Below the pieces are notes generated by a model that was not told the DNA's origin, ran no database searches, and saw only the letters and a list, made by a program, of their open reading frames with translations. Shown piece by piece: positions 22,540 to 23,032 of a stretch of DNA of 39,096 nucleotides (position 1 is its first letter; each line of letters begins with the position of its first letter). Source of the DNA: a virus (lineage: Duplodnaviria; Heunggongvirae; Uroviricota; Caudoviricetes). The position numbers and the translations under genes are program-made. The DNA lies in IMG/VR virus record IMGVR_UViG_2851971941_000002; one strand, given 5' to 3'.

Positions 22540-22791
22540 ATGAAAATCAGAAATATTCTCGCTATCTCCCTTGCGACATCATCCTTCAGTTGCCTGGCAT
22601 TTAAATCCTCGCCCAATGTGCTACCAGGACCAACGAATCAACTAACTGCGGTAGAAAGTAAAATTATCGGACATTTTTATGCCCCACACAGTACATTACC
22701 CGGAACAACCATCACAGGGACATGTGACGCCTCCCCCGTCCCGGGATGCACCTGTCCGTTTTGTACTATGCTGCGTAGCCAAAACCGATAA
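22540..22791 (+). CDS. hypothetical small secreted Cys-containing protein (83 aa)
   Basis: ATG at 22540 preceded by GAGG; predicted signal peptide MKIRNILAISLATSSFSCLA; four Cys in the mature C-terminus (TCDASPVPGCTCPFC); no family recognised. Confidence 0.4.
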   Translation: MKIRNILAISLATSSFSCLAFKSSPNVLPGPTNQLTAVESKIIGHFYAPHSTLPGTTITGTCDASPVPGCTCPFCTMLRSQNR

Positions 22792-22852
22792 CATCCGCAT
22801 TTACCTGGTATTCCATGATGAGTTCACGCAGCGACTGATAGAGGAAGGAAAG

Positions 22853-23032
22853 ATGGTTAGTAAAAGCAAGGCGCATTGCCGCCGCATGCTGCAGGCATTG
22901 CAACAGACGAGAGCAGGTATTTTTGACCAGTTGGAAAACTGCCAGCATACTTTGCCCGAGTATATCGCCATCTCATCGGAAACCAGTGCAACTCTTATTC
23001 ATCGGGTTCCACCAGAGAAAAAGAAGAAATGA
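22853..23032 (+). CDS. hypothetical small protein (59 aa)
   Basis: ATG at 22853 preceded by GGAAGGAAAG; frame MVSKSKAHCRRMLQALQQTRAGIFDQLENCQHTLPEYIAISSETSATLIHRVPPEKKKK; below the ORF-track size cutoff as a stand-alone gene; no family recognised. Confidence 0.3.
   Translation: MVSKSKAHCRRMLQALQQTRAGIFDQLENCQHTLPEYIAISSETSATLIHRVPPEKKKK

Follow-up and report, generated by a model that had tools for sequence, protein, structure and literature searches.

Does the strand opposite the late genes of a lambdoid prophage, in the interval between the cos site and bor, encode a protein, and if so, of what kind? The question is raised by two small plus-strand open reading frames (ORFs) in IMG/VR virus record IMGVR_UViG_2851971941_000002, a stretch of 39,096 nt that is referred to here as the window, with strands + and − as given in the record. 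The first, which we call ORF83 as a working name, runs from the ATG at 22540 to the TAA at 22789–22791 and encodes 83 amino acids (aa); the second, ORF59, runs from the ATG at 22853 to the TGA at 23030–23032, encodes 59 aa, is preceded by GAGGAAGGAAAG, and also has a longer 117-aa form starting at 22679. These coordinates, lengths, and strand, given in an initial annotation that saw only the sequence, were confirmed by re-reading it. The surrounding 4 kb contain 52 ORFs of at least 30 aa; chance readily produces ORFs of such length, and the mere existence of ORF83 and ORF59 therefore proves nothing. Sequence comparisons identify ORF83 as a genuine, conserved protein-coding gene under purifying selection.

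Searching 5.8 billion proteins returned 22 homologues of ORF83, most of them full length (82–84 aa) and 55–77% identical, from Escherichia coli, Salmonella (subspecies salamae, indica, and enterica), Citrobacter, and Klebsiella. A profile search of 1.84 billion cluster representatives gave 31 proteins, with identities down to approximately 25%. Four long Cys-repeat proteins among these were set aside, leaving about 27 proteins of 67–104 aa, all labelled “hypothetical,” with Klebsiella, Enterobacter, Salmonella, Serratia, and Pantoea as named sources. Scanning species-representative genomes with a narrower alignment gave five loci and added two Buttiauxella species. True full-length members of the family have 79–85 aa and come from eight genera, all of them Enterobacterales; ORF83 belongs to an uncharacterised, unnamed family that is restricted to this order. 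When both ORFs were compared with 50,697 phage records by tblastn, only identical copies were found, and a distant blastn search of E. coli genomes and phages yielded nothing at 60–97% identity apart from a 45-nt cos stretch.

Codon alignments of seven lineages gave ratios of nonsynonymous to synonymous substitution rates (dN/dS) of 0.09–0.28, with synonymous sites near saturation. The corresponding pooled ratio of proportions of differences (pN/pS) was 0.30 in frame +1 and 1.07–1.70 in four of the other five frames; one antisense frame reached 0.38, yet it has stops in every sequence, and only frame +1 is free of stops throughout the alignment. Homology is confined to the ORF (22540..22791, +): nucleotide identity to seven other lineages is 60–71% within ORF83 and 47–54%, the level of shuffled sequence, over the 150 nt downstream, and upstream it is also at the shuffled level save where a relic of cos is shared. 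Near-identical E. coli variants differ in ORF83 by eight synonymous and five nonsynonymous substitutions and show neither stops nor disruption. The initial annotation had proposed conservation and dN/dS as a check, and the frame is indeed kept across eight genera with these low ratios; its alternative of a noncoding region with chance ORFs is refuted for ORF83 by the comparative evidence.

An in-frame upstream ATG at 22471 is lost in two variants (L005 and L041), which places the start of ORF83 at 22540; the 106-aa form that would begin at 22471 was rejected for this reason and because homologues share no such extension. Upstream of the ATG at 22540 lies a ribosome-binding region, AGAGG...ATCATCAA (22526..22539, +), and a purine-rich GGAG/AAGG-like tract followed by ATCATCA(A/G)ATG is found in five of the eight lineages compared.

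Existing annotation gives a different picture of the region. Phage 21 (OL657228) and five further lambdoid phages match segment 22400–23150 at 100% identity, and the segment was found in 1223 of 5426 complete E. coli genomes (1199 at ≥99% identity), Nissle 1917 among them. Neither the phage 21 record nor any of seven inspected RefSeq records of E. coli annotates ORF83. Instead, a 60-aa minus-strand ORF at 22766–22948 (CPT_21_75, WP_000881610.1) is called in phage 21 and usually also by the Prokaryotic Genome Annotation Pipeline (PGAP), and phage 21 has an additional 40-aa minus-strand call at 22995–23117 (CPT_21_74). In some genomes, PGAP calls ORF59 instead (WP_000253883.1), alternating between it and the 60-aa ORF from genome to genome. 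The record of PhiR47_2 has the 117-aa form and that of ev017 yet another ORF, neither of them with ORF83, and the genome announcement of phage 21 says nothing on the cos–bor region.

Were the two minus-strand ORFs real genes of the late operon, ORF83 would be a chance ORF. They are called by the phage 21 record and by PGAP, and the 60-aa ORF matches phrog_3744 and has the best codon-usage score of the region, with a log-likelihood ratio per codon of +0.11 (−0.16 for ORF83), although codon usage, when tried as a discriminator between the overlapping ORFs, could not separate them. Natural variants speak against both: the 60-aa ORF is cut by premature stops (E46*, Q38*, and C12*) and carries 11 nonsynonymous changes versus one synonymous change, whereas the 40-aa ORF is truncated by a stop (E37*) in one variant and lacks its start codon in a second. 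Every database relative of these ORFs is near-identical or frameshifted, and the conservation of ORF83 across genera is not explicable by chance. Hence, we consider it scarcely credible that the minus-strand ORFs are the genes here; they are probably spurious, that is, annotation artefacts rather than functional genes. Gene callers probably miss ORF83 because of its atypical codon usage. Current annotation has thus placed probably spurious ORFs and missed the only ORF under clear purifying selection, and its correction would extend to phage 21 and more than 1200 genomes.

The ORF83 protein has the build of a small exported precursor. Residues 1–20, MKIRNILAISLATSSFSCLA before FK (22540..22599, +), form a predicted Sec-type signal peptide with a family-wide cleavage site. 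Across 29 family members, an n-region of the form MK-x-K/R leads into a hydrophobic core, position −3 is Ala or Cys in 26, position −1 is Ala in 28, and position +1 is Phe in 28. The best 8-residue hydropathy is 2.2–3.2 in 28 of the 29, the exception (P0081; 0.99) being scored over a probable miscalled N-terminal extension. A rule-based check of ORF83 found the charged n-region, the hydrophobic h-region, and the small −3 and −1 residues of a signal peptidase I (Sec) substrate, in agreement with the signal peptide of the initial annotation. That annotation did not include a fifth Cys, C18, which lies inside the signal peptide. Reading C18 as the Cys of a lipoprotein (signal peptidase II) was rejected, since the preceding residues, S-F-S, do not form a lipobox, [LVI][ASTVI][GAS]C, and since the position is Ala in 14 of the 29 members. 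From these features, we infer that ORF83 is exported to the periplasm and cut after A20.

The other four Cys, C62, C70, C72, and C75, all lie within the last 22 residues, clustered near the C terminus as had been noted. They form the pattern C62-x7-C70-x-C72-x2-C75, GTCDASPVPGCTCPFC (22723..22764, +), and C62, G69, C70, C72, and C75 are invariant in the 29 sequences. The mature protein has 59–66 aa across the family (about 63 aa here), always with exactly four Cys, and consists of a variable Pro-rich N terminus, one conserved helix (ESKI-G-FY--H), and a C-terminal four-Cys module with the motif G-T-C-x-A-x-P-V-x-G-C-x-C-x-F-C-x-x-L-R. The four Cys of this module most likely pair in two disulfides or bind a metal. 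Two AlphaFold runs, with predicted local distance difference test (pLDDT) scores of 47.5 and 59.7, gave a helix at residues 32–47 and a second helix starting from the C-P-F-C motif. ORF83 has no match in Pfam at E ≤ 1, enterotoxin families and Bor (PF06291) included, none in NCBIfam or PHROGs, and none in a profile search of the PDB at E ≤ 10. The conserved Sec signal and the four Cys support, as a prediction, the earlier description of ORF83 as a small exported, Cys-containing protein.

A protein of this build could also be a Sec-exported toxin-like or antimicrobial pre-pro-peptide, the active part of which would be the C-terminal Cys-rich 20–25 residues. The succession of a signal peptide, a variable middle, and a conserved Cys-rich C terminus fits such a peptide, as does the presence of the gene on prophages, on conjugative plasmids, and in Salmonella islets that also hold SPATE, NEL, SET, bor, and omptin genes. 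On the other side, the Pfam search gave no match even to the enterotoxin families, the precursor has no double-glycine leader, the central helix is conserved too, and the family extends to environmental Buttiauxella, Serratia, and Pantoea, where its genes neighbour those for zinc uptake. Because no exporter or immunity gene recurs in approximately 12 contexts, a toxin or bacteriocin role becomes less likely still, and we regard it as improbable. These findings neither bear out nor refute the “effector or toxin-like peptide” considered initially; the contexts of the relatives, described below, appear to point instead to an envelope response to zinc starvation under Zur. GiPD474, a Gifsy defence protein (PMC12724215), was also considered and found to be an unrelated ATPase.

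The position of ORF83 bears on how the phage came to carry it. Both ORF83 and ORF59 lie between the cos elements (cosN, AGGTCGCCGCCC, 22380–22391; cosQ, 22415–22421) and bor/iss (23962–24255, +), antisense to the Nu1 gene (21657–22202, −), the terminase A gene (19757–21682, −), and the Rz/Rz1 and R genes (−), which lie beyond bor; the start of ORF83 is about 150 bp from cosN. The initial annotation had placed the ORFs in the region where lambdoid phages carry conversion genes, on the strand opposite to the late genes, and ORF83 does stand at such a moron position. Other lambdoid prophages of E. coli have an allele with 71% identity at this place, near cos and likewise antisense, where the neighbours differ and consist of a 44-aa lipoprotein-like ORF and a DUF3950 ORF; in one such locus, L014, the space of ORF59 holds the 44-aa lipobox (LLSAC) ORF at 5345–5479 (+) and the DUF3950 ORF at 5641–5835 (+). 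Phage HK225 has no gene at the position of ORF83. This variety shows the cos-to-lysis interval to be a hotspot for small-gene cargo. Given its position, the opposite strand, its absence in HK225, the differing neighbours, the atypical codon usage, and a downstream hairpin, together with an inferred promoter, the copy of ORF83 in the window looks like a phage-carried accessory gene, or moron. The window matches phage 21 identically from cos through Rz and is mosaic to the right of Rz.

Relatives of ORF83 occur in other mobile and chromosomal settings. At least 64 Klebsiella plasmids, the majority predicted to be conjugative, carry an allele with 63% identity and a relic cos site, near the gene of a Fur-family repressor and a CobW gene. 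In Salmonella subspecies, the homologue lies downstream of a 133-aa gene matching PliG structures (E 1.7e-57, PDB 4DY3). Within the Salmonella islets, bor and an omptin gene come after the homologue, and a SPATE autotransporter and NEL or SET effectors are also encoded. The Klebsiella pneumoniae homologue is part of an island with genes for a ZnuA-type ATP-binding cassette (ABC) transporter, ALAD, Amidohydro_1, CobW, and PRA-CH, a gene set typical of Zur regulons. A recent preprint describes zniCBA as a Zur target in K. pneumoniae. Flanking the homologue in this zinc island (L033) are a 415-aa ORF (4479–5729, −) and a 111-aa ORF (2076–2411, +), both without a Pfam match, which are candidates for further uncharacterised members of the Zur regulon. 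Single-gene chromosomal homologues are found in Citrobacter koseri, Citrobacter, Serratia, and Buttiauxella; the Citrobacter homologue is divergent from fecI–fecR–receptor genes and that of Serratia from an SBP_bac_5 ABC operon. A PPC-like 135-aa ORF upstream of the Buttiauxella homologue was considered as a relative of PliG and proved not to be related.

Upstream regions were scored against the published 23-bp Zur consensus, GAAATGTTATA-N-TATAACATTTC (that is, GAAATGTTATANTATAACATTTC), as quoted in PMC4219657, with a maximum of 22. A second test used the structure-based pattern TGWNAYRWTATAWYRTNWCA from the same publication (PMC4219657) and counted mismatches. Seven lineages have a site that scores 15–16 out of 22. 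In K. pneumoniae, it lies at −111 from the ATG; in the other six (C. koseri, Citrobacter, the two Buttiauxella species, Serratia, and Salmonella L021), it lies at −40 to −54. The pliG gene, which is known to be a target of Zur in E. coli (PMC4219657), is preceded in four Salmonella islets by the box ATATTGTTATAGTATAACAAAGG at a distance of 54 nt, and the ORF83 homologue begins 95 nt beyond pliG. As background, 119 kb of flanking DNA contain seven such matches, and the 39-kb window contains none. With the structure-based pattern, the sites of the relatives have one to four mismatches; of random 200-nt windows, 1.4% reach three mismatches or fewer. These sites predict Zur control of the chromosomal relatives of ORF83.

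In the window, a putative extended −10 element read by eye, TGCTATTAT (22479–22487, +), overlaps a palindrome, TGTGCCGGCACA (22487–22498). Both are invariant across all E. coli variants and occupy the position of the Zur-like operators of the relatives (−40 to −54), from which it appears that the promoter of ORF83 in the window has lost a Zur operator.

We consider it likely that ORF83 is a moron gene for a Sec-exported, four-Cys envelope factor of the zinc-limitation or host-contact response, captured from a family with a predicted link to Zur. Its transcription would run counter to the late operon and probably start at an extended −10 promoter of its own, and the 83-aa precursor would pass through Sec and be cleaved after Ala20, so that a mature protein of about 63 aa is released into the periplasm. 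On the chromosome, family members would be served by the Zur-box-like operators and stand beside zinc-uptake genes or genes for zinc-independent paralogues, or share an operon with pliG; it is these Zur-type contexts that make an envelope factor of the zinc-limitation (host-contact) response the best guess. Phages, plasmids, and virulence islets would then have captured the family gene, and since the copy in the window seems to have lost the operator, a lysogen would express ORF83 independently of zinc. As to biochemistry, we can only guess at metal handling through Cys and His or, by analogy with PliG, at inhibition of a host factor.

Several observations weigh against this reading. The copy in the window has no Zur box: its best score is 11/22 (shuffle p 0.93), its six mismatches to the structure-based pattern equal the background median, and no site within three mismatches lies near the gene. 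The K. variicola allele and that of a Salmonella integrative and conjugative element also have no Zur box, so that the Zur link, seen as a sequence pattern, holds for relatives only. Even there, the box could serve a divergent neighbour, namely fecI in Citrobacter and the SBP_bac_5 operon in Serratia. A promoter scan did not call the −10 element that was read by eye. The low AlphaFold confidence means that there is no evidence from fold, and the oxidising periplasm favours disulfides, which weakens the idea of a metal site.

A more far-reaching proposal, which we offer tentatively and with more doubt than confidence, is that the family constitutes an unrecognised component of the enterobacterial zinc-starvation response, a small periplasmic four-Cys protein that captures zinc, hands it over, or blocks a host factor encountered during nutritional immunity, and that phage 21-type prophages, conjugative Klebsiella plasmids, and Salmonella virulence islets have captured it and uncoupled it from Zur. 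If this were true, lysogens would be fitter in the host; phage 21-type copies are present in 22% of complete E. coli genomes.

Other regulatory elements were found near the gene. A Fur-box-like element adjoining cosQ (22422..22446) matches GATAATGATAATCATTATC at 15/19 and, with a 6-nt shift, at 14/19; nowhere else in the 39-kb window does a site reach 14/19. It lies 95–118 nt upstream of the ATG. The element is also kept in the 71% allele (L014) and in HK225. Since it is retained in HK225, which lacks ORF83, and abuts cosQ, it cannot be assigned to ORF83 and may belong to cos. No RNA family was found by Rfam in 22150–24000, and the prophage small RNA svsR (PMC12803456), considered as an explanation, was rejected because it is located at cI and not here.

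A separate observation concerns bor in the Salmonella islets, where the interval separating the ORF83 homologue from bor contains a palindrome, CAAATGATAAAAATTATCATTCC (L010 5335–5357, L018 5323, L028 4337, and L029 4600). It was found as a 15–16/22 match to the Zur consensus and resembles a Fur box by eye, which suggests, as far as such a resemblance goes, iron control of bor in these islets. The bor gene of the window has no such box upstream.

For ORF59 (22853..23032, +), the comparisons turned out differently. All copies found are at least 88% identical to it and come from E. coli only, and in none of the other lineages compared is there a homologue of ORF59 3′ of ORF83. Database hits that look more divergent proved to be frameshift artefacts. 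Its variants carry four synonymous and seven nonsynonymous substitutions, and strain DG342-2 is thrown out of frame at codon 6 by one extra nucleotide inserted after 22867. With close relatives only, near-neutral substitutions, and this frameshift, the coding status of ORF59 is unsupported, and it is best described as an E. coli-restricted orphan ORF with a strong ribosome-binding site. The suggestion that the ORFs arose by chance, which failed for ORF83, is thus still plausible for ORF59.

It could nonetheless be that ORF59 is the gene of a real small cytoplasmic protein, co-transcribed with ORF83 and ending at the hairpin that follows it. The strong ribosome-binding site, GAGGAAGGAAAG-ATG, is conserved, the frame is intact in phage 21 and most variants, some genomes have it as a PGAP call, it scores at least as well as ORF83 in codon usage, and a ratio of 4:7 is slightly more synonymous than expected under neutrality. 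Weighed against the frameshift in DG342-2, the restriction to copies of at least 88% identity, the missing counterpart behind ORF83 elsewhere, and the fact that the sole domain match is a PHROG family built from the same sequence, these points leave a protein-coding ORF59 unlikely in our view. ORF59 may rather amount to no more than the 3′ end of an ORF83 transcript that would run to the hairpin. This 12-bp stem-loop, a possible terminator on either strand, lies directly after the ORF59 stop (23038..23064), has folding energies of −18.8 kcal/mol (z −2.6) on the + strand and −20.3 kcal/mol (z −2.9) on the − strand, and is unchanged in variants L041 and L005.

The longer forms that involve ORF59 were rejected. 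That of 117 aa, with its start at 22679, would share DNA with ORF83 in a different frame. Database proteins of 128–165 aa join the N terminus of ORF83 to the ORF59 frame through 1-nt homopolymer changes (for instance P0030, 54 members), and the 165-aa and 128-aa “fusions” correspond to frameshifts in the C5 run at 22744–22748 and the A-run at 23018–23022. These fusions are probably long-read assembly errors; that they reflect real phase variation at the homopolymer runs is a reading that we do not favour.

Two neighbouring genes deserve mention. Between ORF59 and bor, on the late strand, lies the gene of a lipoprotein with a TonB C-terminal domain (23155–23481, −), the signal of which ends in LAVGC and which has little beyond this domain (Pfam TonB_C, E 7e-13). 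The PHROGs label of its family, “Rz-like spanin,” looks like a misnomer. A decoy TonB domain of this kind could hamper TonB-dependent receptors and so exclude phages or colicins. The lipoprotein accompanies ORF83 in the phage 21-type copies and is absent from all other contexts of ORF83. Further along, the endolysin gene at 24745–25221 (−) encodes 158 aa, and the phage 21 record has a 165-aa signal-arrest-release (SAR) endolysin at that position. The 158-aa endolysin resembles lambda R.

Phage 21 is a classical model phage, and the segment with ORF83 is found in about one-fifth of complete E. coli genomes, including, besides Nissle 1917, those of many extraintestinal pathogenic strains. The predicted Zur control, the pairing with pliG and bor, and the spread on mobile elements would make ORF83 a testable candidate for an envelope factor at the host–pathogen metal interface.

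Four known systems invite comparison. The heat-stable enterotoxins STa and STb and the disulfide-containing class IIa microcins resemble ORF83 in that mobile elements encode them as small precursors, with a signal for export at the N terminus and a C-terminal part rich in Cys; ORF83 differs from them in having no sequence match, no dedicated export or immunity genes, and a longer conserved core, so that the analogy is one of architecture only. ZinT and ZnuA are exported, as the ORF83 family is predicted to be, and have Zur-box-like operators as relatives of ORF83 do; the K. pneumoniae homologue directly neighbours the genes of the ZnuA-type transporter. Both are much larger than ORF83 and bind zinc through His, Asp, and Glu. 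ORF83 has no homology to either, and a four-Cys site would probably be oxidised in the periplasm.

PliG (YcgK), a periplasmic inhibitor of g-type lysozyme, is likewise small and Sec-exported, and its gene lies directly upstream of the ORF83 homologue in Salmonella. It is also phage-associated, PDB entry 4DY5 being titled “Gifsy-1 prophage protein.” The two differ in kind: PliG is a 111-aa β-sandwich domain, whereas mature ORF83, of about 63 aa, is predicted to have a single helix and ends in a tail with four Cys, and there is no sequence similarity between them.

The closest parallel in placement is offered by the bor/iss morons of lambda and phage 21. ORF83 has no sequence relationship to Bor and is not a lipoprotein. 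Like bor, it occupies the niche between Rz and cos, is oriented against the late operon, encodes a small protein predicted to be exported to the envelope, and is present or absent among related phages, and in the Salmonella islets bor and an ORF83 homologue stand side by side. ORF83 is a phage-carried accessory envelope gene of a known class, drawn from a family that has no name as yet.

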